DNA from: Escherichia phage UPEC06
Reading direction: 5' to 3' (one strand)
DNA length: 64,000 nt
Sequence record: MW250786
In this document: in pieces, positions 9,942-36,058 of the stretch
How the letters are laid out: each line of letters starts with the position of its first letter
Numbering within the stretch: position 1 is the stretch's first letter
Notes under the pieces: generated by a model
Told to the model about the DNA's origin: nothing
What the model saw: only the letters and a program-made list of their open reading frames with translations
Database searches by the model: none
Made by a program: the position numbers and the translations under genes

Positions 9942-10164
9942 TGATCTCTTCGTTGGCCTTAATGTACATATCCCGTAAGAAAGGTTTCAACCCATCACGC
10001 AAAATATTTCCATCACAAGCATCGTTCAGGTATGGATGGCCTAGAGCCTCCCAGGCAGGTTGATTGGTATAAGTGCCCCAGCCTTGATTCATCATCTGGT
10101 TAAGGTGCTCGATTTGTTTTATCTTAAGCTGCAAAGCTTCAATAGTAATCTGTTTAATATCCAT
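9892..10164 (-). CDS. hypothetical protein
   Basis: ORF track; overlaps neighbour, start uncertain. Confidence 0.3.
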   Translation of the reverse strand: MDIKQITIEALQLKIKQIEHLNQMMNQGWGTYTNQPAWEALGHPYLNDACDGNILRDGLKPFLRDMYIKANEEIIDSLYYQIRKLENENN

Positions 10165-10625
10165 CAGTAAAGGTCCTCAGAGTAAAGTTCTTTTTCATTA
10201 CCACCACGTTCAATACGTACTTGTCCAGCGTAAGTTGCAATAATCATTGCTTCTTCACGTGTCCAATAATTGCTATATTGGTCAATAAACCCTTGGTCAT
10301 CATCACAAACTTGTTGAGTAACTAATTGAGGTTTAACTACATCTAAAACTTCTGCCATATCTTTAGAATAATGACGAGCACCTGGAATAATAAGAGTTCG
10401 TCCATCTTTTAATTTAAAACGGTTGGCTGCGCAGACAATTCGTCGTTGATACTTTTGGTTTTCATCCCAATACAGAGTCTGCCAACAGATTTCAGGAACT
10501 TCATCTAAAACATTTTGTTCTGTATATTCACCACCGTAAGAAGCTAATTTAGCAGCCAGACTTTCCGGAGTCTCACGCGACAAAGCTTTATCTAACAGAG
10601 CTAAACGTTCTTTAAAAGTTTTCAA
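10164..10625 (-). CDS. hypothetical protein
   Basis: ORF track. Confidence 0.35.
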
Positions 10626-10629
10626 TTGA

Positions 10630-10818
10630 TCACCCCTTTGTAGTAGAATCTTGCTTGGTCATTTCACGAAGAATAAGTGCTCCAATATTTTCAAGAAGTG
10701 TTACAAGAGAGTCAACCTCAGGTAACTTAATACTCTTGGCTTCTTTACTCATCCCATCACGAACTCCCGAAATTTGCATAAACACGGCAATCATTTCTTT
10801 TGTAAGTTTAATATTCAT
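10630..10818 (-). CDS. hypothetical protein
   Basis: ORF track. Confidence 0.3.
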
Positions 10819-10885
10819 TTTATCTCCTGTTGTTGGTTGATATGGGTATTATACAGAACTGGAGGCAGGTGTCAAGAGATATATA

Positions 10886-10910
10886 AAGAAAACCGCCCCG
10901 AAGGGCGGTT
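10886..10910 (-). terminator. rho-independent terminator (minus strand)
   Basis: Same AAAACCGCCCCGAAGGGCGGTT hairpin as at 3431-3451, followed on the minus strand by TTTTCTTT. Confidence 0.5.
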
Positions 10911-10919
10911 TAAAAATTT

Positions 10920-11162
10920 TTACCAATTTGCGTAACCATCTTGTTCATCGGTATCACGATCTATGATTCGTGGCTTTGGAGTTAGATCCATATGAGCAAG
11001 AGGCGTACCTTCTGGAATATCATTCAGTGAATATTCAACATTTACCAGTTGACCTGTAAGCTCATCCATCTTTTGGGAGATATACGCTGCAACTGATCGA
11101 CCCTCCAGAGTAGCCAGGTATTTCAGTTTTTCGTAAGTTGCGTCGTTAAAATTAATATTCAT
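10920..11162 (-). CDS. putative ribbon-helix-helix (CopG/Arc-like) DNA-binding protein
   Basis: ATYEKLKYLATLEGRSVAAYISQ resembles an RHH strand-helix-helix motif. Confidence 0.35.
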   Translation of the reverse strand: MNINFNDATYEKLKYLATLEGRSVAAYISQKMDELTGQLVNVEYSLNDIPEGTPLAHMDLTPKPRIIDRDTDEQDGYANW

Positions 11163-11224
11163 ATTTGTATCTCCTTTTTGTATTTTTCATTACAAGGACC
11201 ACACTAACGTGGCCCGATCGTTAC

Positions 11225-11446
11225 TTAAGCTACCAGTTCTAAATCTTCAGCTTCTGCGTAGAAACCATCGACGATAACACCGTCCTGACGTGTGAATGCA
11301 ACAATAACATCTCCCCAATCTTCATCGACGAATTCAACAACGCCAATATCTCCAAATCGAACACCAGACAAACTGTAGCGGTCTTCATAATTACCTAACG
11401 GACTGAACTTAACTGTCTGACCTGGATTAACTTCTTTGATATTCAC
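11225..11446 (-). CDS. hypothetical protein
   Basis: ORF track. Confidence 0.35.
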   Translation of the reverse strand: MNIKEVNPGQTVKFSPLGNYEDRYSLSGVRFGDIGVVEFVDEDWGDVIVAFTRQDGVIVDGFYAEAEDLELVA

Positions 11447-11486
11447 AGAATTTCTCCTTATACAACTTTAAGATATTAACTTTATA

Positions 11487-11798
11487 TTATTCTTCATCAA
11501 CTTCACGACCCATCAAGATATCAAGTTCGTTCAGTTGTTCAATCTGGCTTTCAAGCGCTGCACGTTTCTTCTCTGCTGCATCTTGCTTATCGTATTCACC
11601 GTTGATCAGGGTACGTAGGAATTTAGGGTCGATGTTCAGGTCTTCTTTAGTGATCGCCAGGATGCTTTTCAGATCTTCAGCAGCATCTTTCTGACGACGA
11701 ACAGCTTCAACACCTTCCTGAACAATGTTAGCCAGACGCTTACGAACTTCCAGGTCAGAAGGCAGGGTATTGATCAGTTCGATTTTAGATTTAGCCAT
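11487..11798 (-). CDS. hypothetical protein
   Basis: ORF track; charged, helical character. Confidence 0.35.
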   Translation of the reverse strand: MAKSKIELINTLPSDLEVRKRLANIVQEGVEAVRRQKDAAEDLKSILAITKEDLNIDPKFLRTLINGEYDKQDAAEKKRAALESQIEQLNELDILMGREVDEE

Positions 11799-11883
11799 TT
11801 GTATTTCTCCTCTTTAGTGTTTAAATAGTAAGTTAACTTCTTTGCTTCGATGGGGTAAATAATACCCCATTCAATATCTTCTG

Positions 11884-12231
11884 TCAAGCAGGATTTTTAA
11901 GTTCTTTAAAAACAACCTGGAAGACTGGAATTTCATCACTGATCTCTGACACAAGTAGAGCTACAGTTTCACAAGGTAAAGTACATGTTGCAAACGTCTC
12001 ATAGCCTGTATGGATCTTCAAGGTTAAATTACCTTTCAGTCCAATTTGGAACTGACGTACAAAAGAACTTAATGCACTAACATAAATCTCATGATATCCA
12101 TTTGGACGACGAACATATTTTTTACCACTTGCAAGACCCTGGATAACAAGACCATCAAAAGAGATTTTAGTCTGAGCACCATCATACAGTGGCAACGCAG
12201 TTTTTTCAACATCTTTTTCTTGATTCATCAT
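11884..12231 (-). CDS. hypothetical protein
   Basis: ORF track. Confidence 0.35.
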   Translation of the reverse strand: MMNQEKDVEKTALPLYDGAQTKISFDGLVIQGLASGKKYVRRPNGYHEIYVSALSSFVRQFQIGLKGNLTLKIHTGYETFATCTLPCETVALLVSEISDEIPVFQVVFKELKNPA

Positions 12232-12237
12232 TTCTCC

Positions 12238-12414
12238 TTATCGTACAAACATTTTACCCTGGTCACAATAACCGTTTTTAATTCCTCGTGGAGCAGACAA
12301 ACATTTTACTGCAATCTCTCCACACTTGCAAGGAGCATTTTCACGTTCTGCAATCTTTCGGTTCTGATCGAAAACTTCACCACATTTTTCACATTTGTAA
12401 GAATACAACGGCAT
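12238..12414 (-). CDS. small zinc-ribbon protein (FmdB-like)
   Basis: Hand-translated 58-aa ORF missing from the track: MPLYSYKCEKCGEVF...APCKCGE, like the FmdB MPIYEYxCxxCG motif; abuts neighbours. Confidence 0.4.
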   Translation of the reverse strand: MPLYSYKCEKCGEVFDQNRKIAERENAPCKCGEIAVKCLSAPRGIKNGYCDQGKMFVR

Positions 12415-12417
12415 TAA

Positions 12418-13194
12418 TTACATACCCTCCAGGTTTGCTTCAAAATAAGTGATTGGCTTCATGATCTTGCCATTCTTATCTTTAAATACTACACGATCCA
12501 TACCATCACCACCTTTTACGATGCTTCCCTTTACACCTTGATAACGGTTACGGTTACGCAGTTCAATCTGTTCAGCTTCCAAACGCAACATGGCATCAAG
12601 ATCAAAATCAGCTTCTGCAAAAAAGTAATACGTCTTGTAGAAACATTCCGTAAATTCTTTCACGGTTGGGATCTTGGAATCATTTGAATCCAAAACCTCA
12701 TTTAAAGCACGACGAGCATTAAAGTTGGAGTTCTGCATGATTGCAACAACCGCCATAACGATCCCGTTTGTATTGTCACTCTCGATAAATTGATCAAGAG
12801 TTCGATAAAGCGAAGTCAGATTATACGTACCCATATTGTCAGCAGGACAGATGTTTTCAGAACCACCTTTTAGGAAGTTGTAATATGATCCAACTACAAA
12901 CAAGTCGCAAAGTGCATCTATGATTTCCTTACGATTCTTTTTAGTTAAACCAAGATCATAAAGTTCATTGTACTCTTCCATAACAAGAGTTTTTTGGAAT
13001 TTTGAAATATCTTCAGAGAAGTCATGAAAACCACGAGCAACAAAATTCCAATTTTTTACTCGCTCTGCTGCTTCCCGAAAGAAGCTATTGCCCTTAACAT
13101 CAATCATCTCGGAAATAAAGGTTTTCTGATCAGCACTCAATTCATTGTATTTCAATTTAATCTCCTTTCGTTTAACTTGGGGGCCATTATACAT
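12418..13194 (-). CDS. hypothetical protein (weak MazG-like NTP pyrophosphatase resemblance)
   Basis: EEYNELYD...CDLFVVG loosely resembles MazG EExxEL / GDxLF motifs; speculative. Confidence 0.25.
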   Translation of the reverse strand: MYNGPQVKRKEIKLKYNELSADQKTFISEMIDVKGNSFFREAAERVKNWNFVARGFHDFSEDISKFQKTLVMEEYNELYDLGLTKKNRKEIIDALCDLFVVGSYYNFLKGGSENICPADNMGTYNLTSLYRTLDQFIESDNTNGIVMAVVAIMQNSNFNARRALNEVLDSNDSKIPTVKEFTECFYKTYYFFAEADFDLDAMLRLEAEQIELRNRNRYQGVKGSIVKGGDGMDRVVFKDKNGKIMKPITYFEANLEGM

Positions 13195-13209
13195 GACCCC
13201 TTATCATTG

Positions 13210-13671
13210 TCAACAGTCTTTATAAGTTTCTAGTGCAACTTTACGGGCTTCATCCTTTTCAATCTCAAACTTAGATCGTTTGTCCTTTCTTGAAGCCTTG
13301 TTACGTCGCTTAACGATTCGACGACAGGTGTGGTAAAGTCGTGTACCTTCATAATCATTCATCCAGAACAGATCGCCATTCACGAAGAGAGTATCGGAGA
13401 TAATACCACAAGCCTTTTCAATGTAAGTAACCTTACCTGTGACCGTATCGACAATTGTATAGTCAACATACCAAAGACTATCGTTATCCTCGCACGGGTC
13501 TTGTTGGCCTTCAGGAACAAAAACTCCAGAATGTATCTCAAATCGAGGAGATCCTTTACGGATCAGCTTCAAGATTTTACCTGCTGGCTTACGAGTTAGC
13601 AGTACCGGAACACCTAAGACTACTGAAAGGTAAAGTGTAATCCCTACAAACCCAATAATTAAAGCTTCCAC
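13210..13671 (-). CDS. hypothetical membrane-anchored protein
   Basis: N-terminal hydrophobic helix (LIIGFVGITLYLSVVLGVPVLL) then basic region. Confidence 0.35.
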   Translation of the reverse strand: MEALIIGFVGITLYLSVVLGVPVLLTRKPAGKILKLIRKGSPRFEIHSGVFVPEGQQDPCEDNDSLWYVDYTIVDTVTGKVTYIEKACGIISDTLFVNGDLFWMNDYEGTRLYHTCRRIVKRRNKASRKDKRSKFEIEKDEARKVALETYKDC

Positions 13672-13673
13672 TA

Positions 13674-15041
13674 TTAAACCTCCTCTGCAATTTTACGAAG
13701 AAGATCCAGAAGAGAATTCGATGCCTCGATCACTTCTTCTAGACTGTTGGCTACACTCTTATCAAAACGAAGCTCAACAAACTTATAATTTAAACGTGGC
13801 AGAAATAGGGATTTCAGATCTTTATTTTCTGCGTCAGTAATGTCATTAGCTTTGATCGTAATAATCTGACCAATAAAATACTCACTTGGTTTTTTACGAA
13901 GTGCATCAGTAAGTCCAGAGCCAGCACCAACCTCAAGAAGTCCATCACGAGTACGGCAGATCAGAGATCCAATAAGCCCAGGTTTCTTTTTGTGAGGCGT
14001 TGTCGCCACAACTTCAAGATCAACATCGAACTCATTTTTAAGTTTGATCCCTTTCTTAGTTTTGTTATCTCCCCAAGGCATATTCGCTTCTTTAAGAACC
14101 GTACCCTCTTTCTTCTGCAAACGCATTTCGATAAAGTGGTCAATAGCCTCTTTAAGACTGCCAATCTGACGACCACGGATCATCTGGAAATGAGAAGACT
14201 CATCAACATAGTTGACAATATTTTCAACCTGCTTACGACGATCTTTATATTTTTTCTTGGATTTACGTGCGATATACTCGTCCATAGAAACAACATCCCA
14301 AACAACCAAACGTACCAGATTAGGATCAATGTTTTCAGGATCTTGGTTAAGATATCCGTTACCGATCTCTCGTGGTTGAACCCCGTGCGGGTATGACAGG
14401 TCAATAACTAAACCTTCCCCGTGCATAACAAAAGGACCATCAGAATTGGCTTTTTCTTTCAGGTTTTGCTCAAGTGAAGGAATACACCGGAAATTAAGCT
14501 CTTTCCCTGATCGTGAACGATAAATGATCTGCTCAGGCCAAACCATAATGTCTGCATAAAGTCCGTCCATCTTCTCGTCGGAGAAAGCACCCTCGTAGTT
14601 GAAATTACGAAGGAGATCCTCTTTGAAAAGGGTGTAGCTTTGGTAAGGAGGCTCTGTAATCAGATCCTTCCAAACCTTGTTGGTCAGGGTTGTCTGGATA
14701 CCACACTCAAGATCGCGGTTAATGATCTTCAGCAGTGTTTCTGGTTCTTCGCACAGTTGAACAGCATTCGTGAGAACATCACGGGCTTCATGCCCAGTAT
14801 ACATACGACTTGCAACATCGTTGACGATAAGATCAATACTCTCTTGCAGATTACGGCTTCCTTGGTGGAAAGTTGCAGGATCAACCTTAAAACTGCGAAC
14901 AAAAAAGTTTAACTCTTTGCTATATGCTACCCGAAATACTTCACGCAGGCCATCATTGTCCGCATGGCTACGTAAGATCGCTTCTTTTTCTTTTGTTGAT
15001 CCGGTTGCTGCAAGTTGTTCGATAATCTTAGTTACGCTCAT
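13674..15041 (-). CDS. ATP-dependent DNA ligase (T4 gp30-like)
   Basis: N-terminus closely parallels T4 DNA ligase (ILNEIASIGSTKQKQAIL); RDLECG...NKVW block; KMDG adenylation motif; C-terminal AGSGL block. Confidence 0.8.
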   Translation of the reverse strand: MSVTKIIEQLAATGSTKEKEAILRSHADNDGLREVFRVAYSKELNFFVRSFKVDPATFHQGSRNLQESIDLIVNDVASRMYTGHEARDVLTNAVQLCEEPETLLKIINRDLECGIQTTLTNKVWKDLITEPPYQSYTLFKEDLLRNFNYEGAFSDEKMDGLYADIMVWPEQIIYRSRSGKELNFRCIPSLEQNLKEKANSDGPFVMHGEGLVIDLSYPHGVQPREIGNGYLNQDPENIDPNLVRLVVWDVVSMDEYIARKSKKKYKDRRKQVENIVNYVDESSHFQMIRGRQIGSLKEAIDHFIEMRLQKKEGTVLKEANMPWGDNKTKKGIKLKNEFDVDLEVVATTPHKKKPGLIGSLICRTRDGLLEVGAGSGLTDALRKKPSEYFIGQIITIKANDITDAENKDLKSLFLPRLNYKFVELRFDKSVANSLEEVIEASNSLLDLLRKIAEEV

Positions 15042-29300: not shown

Positions 29301-29894
29301 ATGTCTAAGCAAACTCACTTGGAAATTTTTAAAAGTGAATATCACATGCTCAAGTTCTTCGGTGAATATCTAGAAAAGCTTGATGTAAACACCTCTGCAC
29401 GTTTAGGTGCATTCCTTTACAGCTACGACGGAAAACTAGTCCTTGCCCGTGGCCTTTATGATTTTCTAACTCAAATGGAAAAGATGACCGCTCTCGGTAT
29501 CGACACCCTTGCTTCTGTGCAAAAAGGTACAAGTTTCCTAGTATTCTTTAAAGAGAAGCCTAAAGATCCTTTAAAATTCCGTTTGGATGTTAAGAAAATT
29601 GAGGCTGTCAAAGAAGCCATTGTTACTGATACTCCAACTAAGGTAATGGAAGAGTCTGTACTTGTCAACACTAAAGTTGAAGAAGTTAAAGAAGTTGAAG
29701 TAAAGGAAGAATTAACTGCTCGTACTGAAGAAGAAAAATCTCAGATCTTAGCCAAGGCTGAAGAACTGCGTGACGACAGCAAAAAGTCTGCATCTAAGGC
29801 GGCATTGGAAGCTTTCGCTGTGGAATACGGCATTTCACTGAGCAAAGGTAAAACCTTTGATGGGATGCTTGAAGATTTAGCTGCTGCACTTTAA
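29301..29894 (+). CDS. hypothetical protein (first gene of the collagen-like fibre module)
   Basis: Strong SD; C-terminal half charged and helical (EEVKEVEVKEELTARTEEEKSQ). Confidence 0.4.
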   Translation: MSKQTHLEIFKSEYHMLKFFGEYLEKLDVNTSARLGAFLYSYDGKLVLARGLYDFLTQMEKMTALGIDTLASVQKGTSFLVFFKEKPKDPLKFRLDVKKIEAVKEAIVTDTPTKVMEESVLVNTKVEEVKEVEVKEELTARTEEEKSQILAKAEELRDDSKKSASKAALEAFAVEYGISLSKGKTFDGMLEDLAAAL

Positions 29895-29946: not shown

Positions 29947-32900
29947 ATGGCTGAATATAATGATAAGGTCGTGGAAGCATTCGTTACTGCTCCTGATCCT
30001 GTCGTAACTACCACTGGTGGTGGAGTTATTTTTAACGGTATTGAAACGGAAGATACTGTATCTACCCTGTTAGTTGGTAATGGTACTGCCTCTTCCCCTC
30101 TGCAAGCTCAAGTTAAGCTATCTCGCCGTGCAGGTAACGCCCTGACTCTGGTTCAGACTGATAACGAGGAAGGCTTGTTTGCTTCCGCTGGAGATGCTAA
30201 AGTATCTACCTCTCAGGCGAACGTTGCAAAATACGTCACTGCGGAAGAAGCTGCTGCTCAAGGTGATGCCAGTTTGGAAGGTGTTCTGGTTGAGCCAGTT
30301 CATGCTACCACTACCGCTGTTGGTGACGCACTGGAAATTACCGCAGATCCTCTGGTTGCTAAAAACTCCCGTATATCCCTGAAAGTTTCCACCTCTTCAA
30401 CTAACGCTTTGTCTGTAGACCCTGATGGTTTGGCAGTTAAAGTTTCCCCCGCTATCGACAACAGCTTGCAAGTTCGTGAAGGTGCACTGTATGTAGCTCC
30501 AGTTGGTGCTGACATTTCTCAAGATGCAGGTAACAAACTGGAACAACGTTCAGATGGTCTGTTTGTAGAAACCATCAAAGGTGACAAAGGCGATCAGGGT
30601 GAACAAGGACCAGCAGGTCCACAAGGCCCAGCCGGAGAAACTGGACCTGCTGGCCCGCAGGGTGAAAAAGGGGATAAAGGGGATACTGGAGAAGTCGGTC
30701 CTGCTGGCGCAACTGGACCTATCGGTCTGACTGGCGCAACTGGCCCTCGTGGTGTAGAAGGTCCTCGTGGCCCTGCTGGTATTGGTATCAACATCCTCGA
30801 CACCTTGGCATCTGAAGATCAATTGCCTTCTGTTGTTGATCTTGCGAATGGTGATACATACGTAATCGGACAGAGTTTCTTTACCGTTATCACTGAAGGT
30901 GGTATCAAACAATGGAGAAACGTAGGTAACTTCGCTGGACCTGAAGGTCTTTCTGCATTTGAAGTTGCTGAAACCGCAGGCTTTGTTGGAACAGTCGATG
31001 ACTGGTTGGCTACCCTTCGTGGTGCTGACGGTATAGGTCTGCAACTCCTTGGTTCTTTCCAGCGTATCGAAGATCTTCCTCAAGAAGAGAACAAACCTGG
31101 TGATGCCTACATCATTCAAGAAAAGATGTATGTTTGGACTGGTGATACAGATGGCTGGCAACCTGTAGGACAGATCGGTCCTGAAGGTCGTTCTGCTTAT
31201 CAGGTCTGGCTGGCTAACGGGAACGTAGGTTCTCAGCGTGAATTCCTTGAATCACTGAAAGGTGAGAAAGGTGATACTGGCGATCAGGGTCCTCAGGGTA
31301 TCCCAGGTGCAGATGGTAAAAATGCTAACGCCATTAATATCTTAGGTTCCGTTGCAGATCAGGCGAGTTTGCCAGAAGGTGCAGATGCAGGTGATGCTTA
31401 CCTGATCGGTACTAACGTATTCGTTTCTGATGGTGCTGGCAACTGGCAAGACTTGGGATCTTTCCAAGGTCCGCAAGGTCCTACTGGTGCTAAAGGCGAC
31501 AAGGGTGACAAAGGGGACAAAGGGGACAAAGGCGATAAAGGTGATGACAACTATGCCATCGCAGTTGCTAACGGTTTCCAAGGATCAGTAAATGAATACC
31601 TTGCATCTATCAAGGGTGAGAAAGGTGACGTTGGTGCAACTGGCCCTCGTGGATTGGCTGGTCCACAAGGTGAACAAGGTCCTGTTGGTGCGGGTCTGAA
31701 TATCCTTGGCTCAGTAGCTTCCGAAGATCAATTACCTCAGACTGGTATTAGTGAAGGTGACGCTTATCTGATTGAAGCTGATCTTTATATCTTCACTGGC
31801 GGTCAGTGGACTAACGTTGGTAACATCAAAGGTCCTCAGGGTGATATTGGTCCTGTAGGTCCACAAGGTCCTATCGGCTTGACTGGTGCACAGGGACCGC
31901 AGGGTGCAACAGGAGCACAAGGCCCTGCTGGCCCACAAGGTGAGACGGGTCCACAAGGTGGTATCGGTCCACAGGGAGAAACTGGAGAGAAAGGCGATAA
32001 GGGCGATAAAGGCGACAAGGGTGATATCGGAACGGGTATCGTAGCTCGTGGCGTTGTTGCAACCCAAAGTGCACTTCCTTCCGGCGCAGCACCTGGTGAT
32101 TTCTACGTTGTAGAAGATGAAGGTAACGGTTACGCTTGGGACGGTACAGCTTGGGTTTTAACTGGATTAGCTCGTGGACCTCAAGGTCTTAAAGGCGATA
32201 CCGGAGAAACCGGAGCCAAAGGTGATAAGGGCGATAAAGGTGATGCAGGCGATGCACTTAAGCTGAGAGGCTTGGTTGCAACTTCCGCTGAACTGCCTTC
32301 CACTGCTGAACTTGGTGACTTCTATGTCGCTGAAGACACCGGAATTGGTTACGCTTGGGATGGTGTTGCTTTCGTTTCTGCCGGAACCGTTAGAGGACCG
32401 CAAGGTGAAGTAGGGCCGCAGGGTGAAGTTGGTCCTCAAGGACCTCAAGGCGAGAAGGGAGATGCTGGCGAGCAAGGTCCTCAAGGATTGGTCGGTGAAA
32501 CAGGTGCAAAAGGTGATAAAGGAGATAAGGGTGACGTTGGCTCTGGTCTGATTCCGAGAGGAACTTTACCATCTCAAGCAGATCTTCCTCAAACTGGTGA
32601 AGTTGGTGACTTCTACGTAGCTAACGATACTGGTATTGGCTATGCTTTTGATGGAACTGCATTCGTAGAAGCTGGAGTTGCCCGTGGTCCACAGGGTGAA
32701 CAAGGACCCCAGGGTGAACAGGGACCACAAGGACTTAAAGGTGATACTGGTGAAACAGGTGCTCAGGGACCTCAAGGTGTTCAAGGTGAGAAAGGTGATA
32801 CCGGAGAACGTGGAGAGGTAGGTCCGCAAGGTGATCAGGGTCCGCAAGGTGAGCAAGGTCCTCAGGGTGATATCGGACCAGGTGTAGAGATCATTGGACG

Positions 32901-33747
32901 ATTTGATACCTCTGATGAATTACCTTCCACGGGTACTTTGGGTCAAGGTTACCTTATCCAAGGCGACTTCTGGGGTTGGACTGGTGCAGCATACGAGAAC
33001 TTGGGTCGTATTCAAGGTCCGGTTGGACCAGTAGGTCCTACGGGTGACCAAGGACCACAAGGCCCTGTCGGTAACAAAGGCGATAAAGGCGACCAAGGGA
33101 CCCTTTGGGTAGTTTTTGCTCGTGCACCAATGGTGAGCGATGGTCGTGTTAACGATCTGTACCTCAACTCTTCCACTCTGGAATATTACCGTAAAACTTC
33201 CGCAACGAACTGGGCACTGCTCGGATTCTTAGGTGGTGGTAACGTGTATGACGCACCAGGGGACGGAAAGCTGTATGTCCGTACTGATGGTGGTTGGGTT
33301 GAATTACCTACCGCAGAAGTTCTGGAAGCACCTCGTGATGGTAACCAATACGTCCGTAAAGACGGCGCTTGGACAACTGTTACAGTTCCTGTAACGGAAG
33401 CACCACTTGAAGGTGGATTCTACGTCCGTGAAAATGGTGCGTGGGTTAAACTGGATCAGTACGATTTACGTGTTGTTGCTTCAACTGGTGCAATTGATGC
33501 AAGCTCTGGTAATGCTTGGACTTTAGATGGTACAACCAACAAGTCCTTGACTATCACCGGATTGCCAGCAGGAAGGGCTAAAACCATAGTTTTACGATTC
33601 ACTGGTAACGGTGGTCAGATTAACTGGGATAGCCAGATCGCTTGGTCTAACGGAACAGCACCGACCCTCGGAGCTACCCGCACTATCCTGACCCTGTTCT
33701 GGGATGGTGAATTCCTGACTGGTACTCAGGCAATGACTGTAGGTTAA
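29947..33747 (+). CDS. collagen-like repeat fibre protein (side-tail-fibre-like)
   Basis: 1266 aa; long Gly-X-Y runs alternating with eight ~50-aa modules; C-terminal YVRxDGxW repeats x3 typical of phage tail-fibre repeats. Confidence 0.7.
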   Translation: MAEYNDKVVEAFVTAPDPVVTTTGGGVIFNGIETEDTVSTLLVGNGTASSPLQAQVKLSRRAGNALTLVQTDNEEGLFASAGDAKVSTSQANVAKYVTAEEAAAQGDASLEGVLVEPVHATTTAVGDALEITADPLVAKNSRISLKVSTSSTNALSVDPDGLAVKVSPAIDNSLQVREGALYVAPVGADISQDAGNKLEQRSDGLFVETIKGDKGDQGEQGPAGPQGPAGETGPAGPQGEKGDKGDTGEVGPAGATGPIGLTGATGPRGVEGPRGPAGIGINILDTLASEDQLPSVVDLANGDTYVIGQSFFTVITEGGIKQWRNVGNFAGPEGLSAFEVAETAGFVGTVDDWLATLRGADGIGLQLLGSFQRIEDLPQEENKPGDAYIIQEKMYVWTGDTDGWQPVGQIGPEGRSAYQVWLANGNVGSQREFLESLKGEKGDTGDQGPQGIPGADGKNANAINILGSVADQASLPEGADAGDAYLIGTNVFVSDGAGNWQDLGSFQGPQGPTGAKGDKGDKGDKGDKGDKGDDNYAIAVANGFQGSVNEYLASIKGEKGDVGATGPRGLAGPQGEQGPVGAGLNILGSVASEDQLPQTGISEGDAYLIEADLYIFTGGQWTNVGNIKGPQGDIGPVGPQGPIGLTGAQGPQGATGAQGPAGPQGETGPQGGIGPQGETGEKGDKGDKGDKGDIGTGIVARGVVATQSALPSGAAPGDFYVVEDEGNGYAWDGTAWVLTGLARGPQGLKGDTGETGAKGDKGDKGDAGDALKLRGLVATSAELPSTAELGDFYVAEDTGIGYAWDGVAFVSAGTVRGPQGEVGPQGEVGPQGPQGEKGDAGEQGPQGLVGETGAKGDKGDKGDVGSGLIPRGTLPSQADLPQTGEVGDFYVANDTGIGYAFDGTAFVEAGVARGPQGEQGPQGEQGPQGLKGDTGETGAQGPQGVQGEKGDTGERGEVGPQGDQGPQGEQGPQGDIGPGVEIIGRFDTSDELPSTGTLGQGYLIQGDFWGWTGAAYENLGRIQGPVGPVGPTGDQGPQGPVGNKGDKGDQGTLWVVFARAPMVSDGRVNDLYLNSSTLEYYRKTSATNWALLGFLGGGNVYDAPGDGKLYVRTDGGWVELPTAEVLEAPRDGNQYVRKDGAWTTVTVPVTEAPLEGGFYVRENGAWVKLDQYDLRVVASTGAIDASSGNAWTLDGTTNKSLTITGLPAGRAKTIVLRFTGNGGQINWDSQIAWSNGTAPTLGATRTILTLFWDGEFLTGTQAMTVG
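31495..31545 (+). repeat. tandem 9-bp coding repeat (GDK)n inside the collagen-like gene
   Basis: ggcgacaag/ggtgacaaa/ggggacaaa units encode [17 protein letters not shown]; similar runs near 31981-32020, 32215-32250 and 32515-32535. Confidence 0.6.
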
Positions 33748-33754
33748 TTTTTAA

Positions 33755-33779
33755 ATGGGGGCTTCGGCCCCCTCTTTTC
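33755..33779 (+). terminator. stem-loop / weak terminator after the collagen-like fibre gene
   Basis: GGGGGC-TTCG-GCCCCC hairpin followed by TCTTTTCAG. Confidence 0.4.
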
Positions 33780-33793
33780 AGAAAGGAGTTAAT

Positions 33794-34429
33794 ATGGTAA
33801 TCGATAAGATTTATGGCTGGACACCTATGATCCGTATGTCTGACATGCGATATCCGGTATACCTGGCCGACTATCGTGCTGAGTATCCCAACGTATCTAT
33901 CGGCAGTTTTGTTTATGCTGTTGGTATGGCTGAGGTTGGATATCATGCGGTTTATGACGTAACTATGCCGCAAGGTGATGTTGTTACTGAAGGATCGCCG
34001 GAATTACGTGAAGATGGATTCTGGTACAGAACTTGGAATGTTAGAGACTTCACCGAACAAGAGATCGCTGATAACCTTGCTCGTGAAAAAGAGCAGCGTA
34101 TCAATGAGGCTCGGATGACTCTTGATAATGAGAGATCCGAAGGGGTTGTTGTAGCCAGCAAACGATATCAGTCAGACGCTCAAGCTTTTGCTTATTATAG
34201 TTCCATCTCTGCTGTTGCTAAAGACTCACCTGAAGAAGTTTTTCACTTAGTTACTTCTGATAATCAGGTAGAAGAATTCCTCGGTGATGAAGTTATTGCC
34301 CATATAAAAGAAATTCAAAAAGTTAACGCAAAAGTTTATGACGAGTTTGCGAAAATTGTAAAATCTATCCGTGAAGCAAGTTCTTCTGAAGAAATCCCTC
34401 AAGTACCTCCCTCTTTTCAAAATCTTTAA
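33794..34429 (+). CDS. hypothetical protein, possible fibre assembly/chaperone protein
   Basis: Start at ATG after AAAGGAG (track start 33755 lies in the hairpin); sits between two fibre genes. Confidence 0.3.
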   Translation: MVIDKIYGWTPMIRMSDMRYPVYLADYRAEYPNVSIGSFVYAVGMAEVGYHAVYDVTMPQGDVVTEGSPELREDGFWYRTWNVRDFTEQEIADNLAREKEQRINEARMTLDNERSEGVVVASKRYQSDAQAFAYYSSISAVAKDSPEEVFHLVTSDNQVEEFLGDEVIAHIKEIQKVNAKVYDEFAKIVKSIREASSSEEIPQVPPSFQNL

Positions 34430-34459: not shown

Positions 34460-36058
34460 ATGAGTAAAAGTATTAGAGGAATGGCAGGTCATAATAACGG
34501 TGTTTTTTACGGAAATGCCCTTTATGACTTAGAAAGAAAGGTTAAAATGGATTTTAAAGATATCATGGAAAAAGGTGATTCCAGCCAAACACCTGGTCCA
34601 GAAGGTCCACAAGGACCAAAAGGGGATACTGGCCCTGCCGGACCTGTAGGTCCTGTAGGTCCGCAAGGACCACAGGGTGAGATCGGGCCTCAGGGTCCTA
34701 CTGGCCCTCAAGGACCTGTCGGAGCTACTGGTCCTACCGGACCTGAGGGTAGTGAAGGACCACAAGGCCCTCAAGGAGAGCAAGGTATAGCTGGTCCAGT
34801 AGGACCAAAAGGGGATACTGGTGAACAAGGTCCTCAGGGAGAGCAAGGACCCGCTGGTCTAAAAGGCGATACTGGGGATATTGGCCCTGCTGGACAAGAA
34901 GGGCCAATAGGTCCGACTGGCCCAACTGGCCCTGCCGGACCAAAGGGGGATGTTGGTCCTCAAGGACCTAAAGGCGAAACTGGTGAGCAGGGACCTATTG
35001 GACCACAAGGCCCACAAGGGGATGTTGGTCCTGTAGGTCCAGCAGGGCTTACTTTCCGAGGTTTTTATGATCCTTTAGTTGAATACTCTCAGAACGATAC
35101 TGTATCTTACAACGGATCTACTTATTTTTCCTTAAGAACAAGTATAGGCGCTAGTCCAGACACATCACTTGAAGATTGGTCTTTATTGGCAGCAGAGGGA
35201 GCAAGAGGCCCACAAGGCCCAACTGGCCCTCAGGGACCTAAAGGCGACCAGGGTGAGATTGGTCCTGCCGGAGCTACCGGTCCTGAAGGTCCGACTGGCC
35301 CAACTGGCCCGACTGGACCCGCTGGACCGAAAGGGGATAAAGGAGATAAAGGAGAGGTTGGACCTCAAGGACCTAAAGGCGACCAAGGGGTTATGGGAGA
35401 ACAAGGACCGCAGGGTATCGCTGGAACTACTGGACCTGCTGGTCCACAAGGACCTAAAGGCGACAAAGGAGATGTTGGCCCTCAAGGTCCCGCTGGTCCA
35501 CAAGGTTTGGATGGTATCCAAGGCCCAGCGGGTCCCCAGGGGATTAGAGGAATACAAGGACCTAAAGGCGACACTGGTGAGCAGGGAGAGAAAGGGGATA
35601 AGGGTGACAAGGGTGAGAAAGGTGATGCAGGAATATCAAGAACATTCCTTAAGGTTAAAACATCATCTGTTGGCACCAATCACGCGATCAAAATGCCAGC
35701 ACCTCTTGATAACCTATCTATAGGCATAAGGCTTGATTCAGCGGTACGTTTTAGTATTAGGGGTTGGATTGATACAGATACGACAGCCAGAAATGTTAGG
35801 GGGGATATTGAAGGCTTCAATAACTCTGAAAATTACTTCAATACAACGGTAAGACAATTGATATCTTCATCAACTGCAACTGGCACAACCCTTGTAGCCG
35901 ATATCAGCGAATTCCAAAGAATTAGGCCATATACATTTAGCTTCTTTGAAACAACAACAGAGACAATGTGGAGAGTAACTATAACTCTCTTCACGTCAGG
36001 GTATGTAGTAACTGACAATCAATGGCTATGTATAGAAGCTGTTAGACTTGATGCGTAA
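34460..36058 (+). CDS. collagen-like repeat fibre protein 2
   Basis: 532 aa; two long Gly-X-Y blocks separated by a short non-collagen segment; non-collagen C-terminal domain. Confidence 0.65.

Follow-up and report, generated by a model that had tools for sequence, protein, structure and literature searches.

The 64,000-nucleotide (nt) stretch of Escherichia phage UPEC06 DNA analysed here (record MW250786; the window) comes from a Vequintavirinae myophage that is rV5-related and Certrevirus-like. At 29947..33747 on the plus strand of the window lies a single open reading frame (ORF) encoding a collagen-like fibre protein of 1,266 amino acids (aa), in which collagen runs are interspersed with eight copies of a small module. 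The protein matches PHROG 3904 'tail fiber protein' (E = 0) and, over aa 973–1265, PHROG 19200 'virion structural protein', and it is 96% identical to the 'tail fiber protein' of phage A7_1 (UZZ63916). At the DNA level the gene is 92.7% identical to its counterparts in the Escherichia phages A7_1, A73 and W70 (Vequintavirinae) and 89.8% identical to that of LTH01. Genes that are near-identical by sequence have already been entered in databases under the name 'tail fiber protein', and the UPEC06 gene is unexceptional within a very large, already sequenced phage-fibre family. Its membership of the virion is taken from the literature on CB7_10 (112 kDa), the orthologue in Pectobacterium phage CB7, which was detected by mass spectrometry (MS) in purified virions of CB7 (39 unique peptides, 46% coverage; PMC7344957); the label 'tail fibre' given to CB7_10 in that paper rests on the collagen domain only.

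Scanned mechanically for Gly-X-Y, the protein shows nine unbroken runs, of 23, 7, 9, 9, 23, 9, 17, 22 and 10 triplets (129 in total), and Pfam Collagen (PF01391) matches the protein with an E-value of 4.6e-44 (148 bits, cut-off 27.2). Eight further segments of 44–50 aa fit the pattern L.ILG.VA....LP......GD.Y.I......W.G..W...G (modules M1–M8). Runs (c, with the number of triplets) and modules (M) together form an array that occupies aa 212–1053, in the order c23-M-M-c7-M-c9-c9-M-c23-M-c9-M-c17-M-c22-M-c10. The features of the gene are as follows, with bit scores against the module profile described below.

29947..33747, + strand: whole ORF, collagen-like virion fibre protein, 1,266 aa
29947..30579, + strand: N-terminal region (aa 1–211), presumed virion-proximal, with shaft-like NxLxxxxDGLxV repeats
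30580..30786, + strand: collagen run 1 (aa 212–280), 23 triplets, Gly-X-Y scan and Pfam
30787..30933, + strand: module M1 (aa 281–329), 46.9 bits
30952..31023, + strand: helix-like motif 1, SAFEVAETAGFVGTVDDWLATLRG (aa 336–359), 24 aa, between M1 and M2
31033..31176, + strand: module M2 (aa 363–410), 64.9 bits
31192..31263, + strand: helix-like motif 2, SAYQVWLANGNVGSQREFLESLKG (aa 416–439), after M2
31261..31323, + strand: collagen run 2 (aa 439–459), 7 triplets, Gly-X-Y scan
31330..31467, + strand: module M3 (aa 462–507), 64.6 bits
31468..31548, + strand: collagen run 3 (aa 508–534), 9 triplets, KGD repeats, Gly-X-Y scan
31549..31614, + strand: helix-like motif 3, looser variant NYAIAVANGFQGSVNEYLASIK (aa 535–556), similarity judged by eye
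31615..31695, + strand: collagen run 4 (aa 557–583), 9 triplets, Gly-X-Y scan
31696..31830, + strand: module M4 (aa 584–628), 69.1 bits, the copy modelled
31831..32037, + strand: collagen run 5 (aa 629–697), 23 triplets, Gly-X-Y scan
32038..32175, + strand: module M5 (aa 698–743), 53.9 bits
32176..32256, + strand: collagen run 6 (aa 744–770), 9 triplets, Gly-X-Y scan
32257..32394, + strand: module M6 (aa 771–816), 57.8 bits
32395..32547, + strand: collagen run 7 (aa 817–867), 17 triplets, Gly-X-Y scan
32548..32685, + strand: module M7 (aa 868–913), 57.0 bits
32686..32883, + strand: collagen run 8 (aa 914–979), 22 triplets, Gly-X-Y scan
32884..33015, + strand: module M8 (aa 980–1023), 54.7 bits
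33016..33105, + strand: collagen run 9 (aa 1024–1053), 10 triplets, Gly-X-Y scan
33244..33456, + strand: three tandem foldon-type hairpins, VYDAPGDGKLYVRTDGGWVELP, VLEAPRDGNQYVRKDGAWTTVT and VTEAPLEGGFYVRENGAWVKLD (aa 1100–1170), Fibritin_C
33457..33744, + strand: C-terminal domain (aa 1171–1266), about 96 aa, presumed distal tip

The module profile was built from the modules of other proteins only, which avoids circularity. Against it the eight modules score 46.9–69.1 bits, the best of 200 composition-preserving shuffles reaching 4.0 bits. The eight globular modules proposed in the first-pass annotation, which was made from the sequence alone, are thereby borne out, as are its collagen triplet runs and its three C-terminal YVR repeats (YVRxDGxW motifs at aa 1110, 1135 and 1159). 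The regular alternation that it described holds in that modules and collagen alternate, but it is not strict, a helix-like motif separating M1 from M2. In an alignment of the eight modules the invariant columns are L-P, G, Y, G and G; pairwise identity is 22–63%, with strong differences at non-core positions. No linker separates modules from collagen, and the junctions keep to one pattern: the first residue of a module is hydrophobic and adjoins G-x-G (for M6, G-D-A), while its last residue runs straight into G-P-x-G (for M1, A-G-P-E-G).

The AlphaFold2 model of M4 with short flanks, computed from a 115-sequence alignment, has a mean predicted local distance difference test (pLDDT) score of 89, rising to 96–97 in the core, and comprises four β-strands with a short helical turn preceding the L-P motif. 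Foldseek with this model returns no PDB match at E ≤ 1e-3 (PDB entry 9bnb matches with E = 1.5 and a template-modelling (TM) score of about 0.5, which is not significant), and the predicted fold is therefore without a close solved relative. Sequence searches agree. Pfam searches with 115 diverse module copies at E ≤ 1 retrieve no consistent family, ruling out PF03406, GYF_2 and CBM_5_12 and speaking against DUF2793; NCBIfam yields only collagen adhesin models below cut-off; and PHROGs catch the module only within whole-protein 'tail fiber' families. The module profile finds nothing significant among all PDB sequences, the best match being PhiKZ gp184 (E = 0.016). A second hit is chain 8rk3_a of JBD30 (E = 0.095), labelled 'DUF2793 domain-containing protein'; DUF2793 is the N-terminal part of receptor-binding proteins of the JBD30 gp54 type. 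This chain and PhiKZ gp184, an inner-capsid protein, occur in unrelated contexts and share with the module only one LP..G..GD.Y stretch, and we treat both as motif resemblances. A literature search found no paper describing the module. The first-pass annotation had allowed that the modules might be a well-characterised domain known in this collagen-alternating arrangement; the arrangement itself turns out to be common, as set out below, but the module is uncatalogued in Pfam, NCBIfam, the PDB and the literature. On the sequence comparisons and the model, it is a widespread, uncatalogued putative β-domain of about 45 aa.

Scanned exhaustively with HMMER, 1.84 billion cluster representatives include 3,638 module-bearing proteins at E ≤ 1e-3, of which 583 also pass E ≤ 1e-10; a single protein carries as many as 15 copies. 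Gly-X-Y runs are present in 149 of the 150 best, most of which alternate module and collagen (for example, c18-M-c15-M-c6-M...), and collagen lies directly upstream of 381 and directly downstream of 402 of 507 full-length module copies. Carriers include Certrevirus, Seunavirus and phAPEC8-like phages and jumbo phages of Erwinia, Ralstonia, Pseudomonas and Proteus; by fold they extend to crAss-like, Lactobacillus, Agrobacterium and Rhodococcus phages, with a weak fold match in a giant-virus collagen-like protein (E = 6e-3). All 33 matches at E ≤ 1e-3 in BFVD are 'collagen repeat', 'tail fiber' or unnamed viral proteins, and among ten diverse representatives the source names are absent or 'hypothetical protein'. 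The combination of module and collagen is a very common phage-fibre architecture and no peculiarity of the UPEC06 gene. The richest module protein (P0001; 1,356 aa, 15 modules and 15 collagen runs) is encoded at 10001–14071 of a metagenomic PhiKZ-like contig (L003), between two DUF7941 genes and adjoining head–tail joining (PF24214/PF24215) and phiKZ_IP genes; it shows a faint match to PF26696 PTL_trimer.

The conserved module columns (L-P, G-D-x-Y, W-x-G, W, G) are identical in phages of unrelated hosts, a pattern that would fit a structural role. The same residues can be read in another way. If the modules were adhesion knobs, that is, small lectin-like domains present 24 times per trimer and binding host glycans weakly and multivalently along the fibre, the collagen would be only a spacer, and the foldon motifs and the collagen itself would trimerize the protein. 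Conserved aromatics and Asp (GD-Y, W-G, W) are often found in carbohydrate sites, the non-core positions vary strongly between the eight copies, as their 22–63% identity indicates, and the neighbouring 532-aa collagen protein carries a binding-type, CBM_5_12-like insert (E = 0.0061). Nevertheless, the module itself has no lectin or carbohydrate-binding module matches and its conservation is independent of the host, and we consider adhesion knobs unlikely.

The collagen runs are rich in Pro (34%), Asp (26%) and Glu (18%) at the X position and in Gln (31%), Lys (21%) and Thr (15%) at the Y position. Triplets of this type, stabilized by charge and by Pro, Gln and Thr, are known from bacterial collagens and need no hydroxyproline. 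The Gly-X-Y runs would form a trimeric triple helix, the 129 triplets corresponding to approximately 111 nm (0.286 nm per residue); with the eight nodes and both termini included, the whole fibre may be roughly 150 nm long. The DNA of collagen run 3 contains 5.6 copies of the 9-nt tandem repeat AAAGGCGAC. (Lys-Gly-Asp)n stretches at 31492–31544, 31990–32026, 32218–32253 and 32494–32534 likewise appear as 9-nt repeats that are only 78–89% matched because synonymous codons alternate (AAA/AAG, GGC/GGT/GGG and GAC/GAT); such alternation would reduce replication slippage.

Downstream of the array, the three YVRxDGxW repeats, which the first-pass annotation had not recognised as foldon-type motifs, belong to tandem hairpins that match Pfam Fibritin_C (PF07921) in three stretches (49.4 bits, cut-off 21); the hairpin region also matches PDB foldon chains (1rfo, 4ncv) and foldon fusions. 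Foldon-like motifs occur near the C terminus in 39–41 of about 150 module-bearing proteins. The C-terminal domain has no relative among Pfam families or PDB sequences; its best PDB match, to the feline leukaemia virus (FeLV) receptor-binding domain (E = 0.076), was judged to be due to chance. In the N-terminal region, aa 4–127 match residues 92–215 of gp015 (9rkv_M, E = 7e-4), the baseplate long tail fibre of Agrobacterium phage 7-7-1, in which residues 1–120 form the anchor and residues 177–453 a β-helix. The region carries a widespread fibre motif in common with gp015, G.GT.S.PL.A.VKL....GN.L....DGL, and a weak match to avian adenovirus fibre (E = 0.012) falls below the cut-off.

The helix-like motifs have the consensus S(A)(Y/F)xVAxxxGFxGxxx(E/D)(W/F)LxSL(K/R)G. 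They occur in 37 of 150 related representatives, with 99 copies, and have no match in Pfam; the motif is probably a small helical trimer element. A pattern that fits motifs 1 and 2 does not match motif 3, and the looser variant dividing the two nine-triplet runs was recognised by eye (NYAIAVANGFQGSVNEYLASIKG).

Taken together, these features lead us to a homotrimeric, segmented collagen-like fibre in which the modules act as in-line trimerization nodes, a reading in which our belief and our doubt are about equal. The C-terminal foldon-type hairpins would bring the three chains together as the primary nucleus, and each module would form a three-fold in-line knot that puts the chains of the adjoining collagen segment back together and in register. 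With such knots, each segment of 7–23 triplets would be clamped at both ends, and could therefore fold, and remain folded, independently of the others. The product would be a beaded fibre, its nodes possibly serving as joints too, attached to the virion by the N-terminal 211 aa and ending in a C-terminal domain that would be the distal tip and probably contacts the host. The reading is based on the near-exclusive association of the module with Gly-X-Y, the linker-free junctions, the host-independent core and the nearest folds, which are weak matches to trimerization domains. That trimerization domains nucleate in-register collagen folding is established (PMC5126661; PMC7852327); four structural classes of such domains are known in addition to coiled coils (PMC5126661). 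In animal collagens a trimerization domain nucleates zipper-like folding, and the node model proposes the same for UPEC06. A collagen trimerization or registration role, as pointed to by the predicted fold and the context of the module, appears to be undescribed.

Several observations weigh against this model. Structure prediction of a module with its flanking collagen, which the first-pass annotation had proposed, is convincing for M4 by itself (mean pLDDT 89), but not for the trimer. A linked pseudo-trimer of three units of four triplets, M4 and four triplets, joined by (GGGGS)8 linkers and computed by AlphaFold2 from a 40-row concatenated alignment, has folded modules (pLDDT 70–86) without confident packing (predicted TM score 0.33), and its Gly-X-Y flanks are predicted with low confidence. 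The resemblance of the module, in its last hairpin, to the foldon is not significant, and we reject the idea of an elaborated foldon as a demonstrable homology: hhalign pairs DLYIFTGGQWTNV with the foldon at a probability of 3%. M1 and M2 are followed by 'GPEG' and then a helix-like motif, with no collagen run, so that the nodes are not exclusively collagen clamps. Finally, the position of the gene between the major capsid and head-completion genes is unlike that of a classical baseplate tail fibre.

Of the known systems compared, the closest precedent found for the architecture is EPclB, one of the EPclA–D proteins of enterohaemorrhagic Escherichia coli (EHEC) prophages (Ghosh et al. 2012, PMC3368898), which has two collagen domains with one non-collagen repeat between them (Col-Pf2-Col; the repeat, Pf2 or PF03406, differs from the UPEC06 module). 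Like the UPEC06 protein, the EPcl proteins are phage-encoded Gly-X-Y proteins without hydroxyproline, in which non-collagenous trimerization domains flank the collagen; they are trimeric, as the UPEC06 protein is predicted to be. None of the EPcl domains (PfN, PCoil, Pf2 and PfC) was detected in the UPEC06 fibre, and Pfam searches for PF03406, PF08400 and PF06820 gave no match at E ≤ 0.1 with the whole protein or at E ≤ 1 with its sub-regions. Instead, the UPEC06 protein has eight in-line uncatalogued β-modules, nine collagen segments and foldon-type motifs. The foldon (PF07921) of T4 fibritin (Wac), with which the UPEC06 fibre shares (A/S)P.DG..YVR.DG.W, is known to nucleate trimerization from the C-terminal end of the fibre, and in both phages the gene adjoins neck genes. 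The UPEC06 protein has three tandem copies as compared with one in fibritin; they are followed by a 96-aa domain and are therefore not terminal, unlike the fibritin foldon; and its shaft is built of collagen and modules rather than the α-helical coiled coil of fibritin. It thus carries foldon-type motifs but is no fibritin. The Geobacillus virus E2 ORF18 tailspike-like protein (PDB 7chu) is also listed among the closest known systems.

A more specific proposal would make the module an unrecognised collagen trimerization or registration domain, the viral counterpart of the NC1 domain of the multiplexins (collagens XV and XVIII) by convergence or very remote homology. The multiplexin domain, of about 50 residues, is critical for starting in-register triple helix assembly (PMC7852327) and was chosen for its trimerization at picomolar concentrations (PMC8420576). 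However, multiplexins carry one C-terminal copy per chain, as compared with eight in-line copies with collagen on both sides in UPEC06, and PDB profile searches failed to retrieve any of the multiplexin domain structures 3n3f, 3hsh and 9bnb. The comparison is suggestive at the level of the model; common ancestry is unsupported, the structural resemblance is not established, and NC1 would be at most a structural analogue. We regard the proposal as possible but rather doubtful.

Comparison with orthologues indicates how the array has evolved. The first-pass annotation had described the last three modules as nearly identical and suggested a recent duplication. Neither holds: the similar trio is M5–M7, with 50–63% protein and 57–64% DNA identity, and a DNA repeat search finds no long repeat over it, only imperfect 9- and 18-nt repeats within the collagen runs. 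Each module of the Cronobacter phage CR3 orthologue is closest to its positional counterpart in the UPEC06 gene (50–77% identical; 77% between M8 and the last CR3 module), so the modules had already diverged from one another when these phage genera separated. On all three grounds we reject recent module duplication. The CR3 protein has seven modules, with two of the M5–M7 type as compared with three in UPEC06, and thus one module–collagen cassette fewer; its collagen runs there are shorter (c15/c13 versus c23/c17/c22). Since the split of the genera, the sequences suggest, only one M5–M7-type cassette has been gained or lost.

Differences of this kind bear on a further alternative, in which the modules are mainly mechanical joints that break a stiff triple helix into a flexible, possibly foldable fibre, with no nucleating role. 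Cassette number and run length that differ between orthologues would fit the tuning of length and flexibility, and so would the regular alternation with segments of variable length (7–23 triplets). Flexibility, however, needs no conserved, confidently folded domain of 45 aa, as short interruptions of Gly-X-Y suffice, and modules that are mainly joints seem to us decidedly unlikely, although a joint function is compatible with the node model and not exclusive of it.

Among the closer relatives, UPEC06, A7_1 and LTH01 (WWT49288) have an identical module and run architecture, and the UPEC06 gene is an intragenic patchwork of LTH01-like, A7_1-like and one divergent segment. Compared in 200-nt windows with A7_1 (L001) and LTH01 (L004), the segments are as follows.

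aa 1–400: 99–100% nt identity to LTH01, 82–93% to A7_1; LTH01-like
aa 401–600: 84–91% nt identity to LTH01, 98.5–100% to A7_1; A7_1-like
aa 601–800 (Col5-M5-Col6-M6): 79–91% nt identity to LTH01, 79–90% to A7_1; divergent from both
aa 801–1266: 78–95% nt identity to LTH01, 95–100% to A7_1; A7_1-like

Over aa 601–800, A7_1 and LTH01 are 98.5–100% identical to each other in nt sequence. The N-terminal aa 1–211 are the part most divergent from A7_1 (10%), yet they are 99.5% identical to LTH01, and one of the C-terminal 213 residues differs from A7_1. The mosaic points to frequent homologous exchange within the fibre gene. From the mosaic and the differences in cassettes and runs from CR3, the gene appears to evolve as homologous segments are exchanged and as cassettes and triplets are gained or lost; recent tandem duplication does not account for it.

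The fibre gene lies within a block of structural genes whose order is conserved in A7_1 and in the Certrevirus CR3. Upstream, the order is terminase, portal, a 205-aa ORF, a 364-aa ORF, a decoration protein (phrog_2680), a lambda-E-type major capsid protein (PF03864) and a 197-aa ORF. Downstream follow a 224-aa ORF, a 532-aa collagen-like ORF, two small ORFs, a head-completion gene (PF05521), a neck terminator gene (PF23961) and, beyond it, genes for a putative sheath and tube, assigned by position and size, and an 807-aa ORF. The structural ORFs up to about 57 kb are presumed to be baseplate and conventional fibre genes. The closest neighbours and the antisense ORFs of the locus are as follows.

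29301..29894, + strand: upstream neighbour, 197 aa, phrog_3259, conserved synteny
33755..34429, + strand: downstream neighbour, 224 aa, phrog_4998, conserved synteny
34460..36058, + strand: second collagen-like fibre protein, 532 aa, Pfam Collagen E = 1.9e-47
30550–31161, 31732–32067, 32167–32484 and 32566–32856, − strand: antisense ORFs in the fibre gene
34529–34846 and 35183–35557, − strand: antisense ORFs in the second collagen gene

The MS list of CB7 virion proteins (PMC7344957) does not include CB7_9, which gene order alone suggests as the counterpart of the 197-aa ORF, and the 197-aa protein is possibly an assembly factor. CB7_11 (24.5 kDa), presumed by gene order and size to be the counterpart of the 224-aa ORF, is a virion protein (PMC7344957). 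The 532-aa protein consists of two long Gly-X-Y regions, the CBM_5_12-like insert of about 50 aa between them (below cut-off) and a C-terminal domain of about 125 aa; the non-self module profile finds no module in it. In CR3 its slot holds genes of 103 and 456 aa, and the locus is therefore variable. The antisense ORFs inside both collagen genes, of 96–203 aa, are most likely by-products of the codon periodicity of Gly-X-Y, which leaves few stops on the opposite strand, and not genes.

The block occupies the plus strand from about 18 to 57 kb, with minus-strand gene blocks on either side, and the GC skew switches together with the coding strand at both of its ends (about 18 kb and about 57 kb). 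GC content within the window is highest in the two collagen genes (0.47–0.50, against about 0.41–0.45). Just upstream of the structural genes, at 20318–22060, lies a cluster of tRNA genes for Met(cat), Tyr(gta), Pro(tgg), Gly(tcc) and Gln(ttg). Both collagen-like genes are rich in Gly, Pro and Gln, with Gly at 19–22% as compared with 8% elsewhere. We considered and rejected the idea that the Pro, Gly and Gln tRNAs serve the collagen genes: codon usage is not shifted to GGA, CCA or CAA relative to the other structural genes, and the link is unsupported beyond raw amino-acid demand.

Gene order also bears on where the fibre is attached. It may sit at the neck, as a whisker or collar, or on the head, with a role like that of T4 fibritin or of the phage 7-7-1 capsid fibres, a placement that we advance tentatively and rate at somewhat under an even chance. 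The gene directly follows the decoration and major capsid genes and precedes the PF05521 and PF23961 genes, with the baseplate and fibre cluster (47–57 kb) lying approximately 14 kb further downstream, and this position between capsid and neck genes is conserved in A7_1 and CR3. The fibritin gene (wac) adjoins the neck genes of T4, and the UPEC06 protein has foldon motifs as in fibritin. The PhiKZ-like contig points in both directions: head–tail joining genes adjoin the homologue there, but it is flanked by DUF7941 genes, whose products have been proposed to be baseplate-associated fibres (the 'fiber cloud' of the Goslar preprint). The match of the N-terminal region to the shaft-proximal part of the 7-7-1 baseplate long tail fibre (E = 7e-4) also argues for the tail, as does every database annotation, tail fibre throughout, though derived only from collagen content.

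Collagen-like phage fibres are common and structurally almost unstudied, and the in-register folding of a hydroxyproline-free triple helix of more than 100 nm made by a bacterium is so far unexplained. If the node model is true, phages use the module repeatedly and in-line to build fibres of more than 100 nm from short, independently nucleated segments, and a viral class would join the few known collagen trimerization folds. The module, present in thousands of protein clusters, would be among the commonest uncatalogued phage-fibre domains and a new domain family for annotating phage proteins now called 'hypothetical' or 'collagen repeat', which number in the thousands. For engineering, it would also provide a compact in-line trimerization module beside the foldon and the collagen XV/XVIII domains that biotechnology already employs. 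The UPEC06 gene is a recombination hot-spot between the head and neck genes, and the rV5-related phages may thus possess a long fibre on the neck or head which negative-stain electron microscopy has overlooked.

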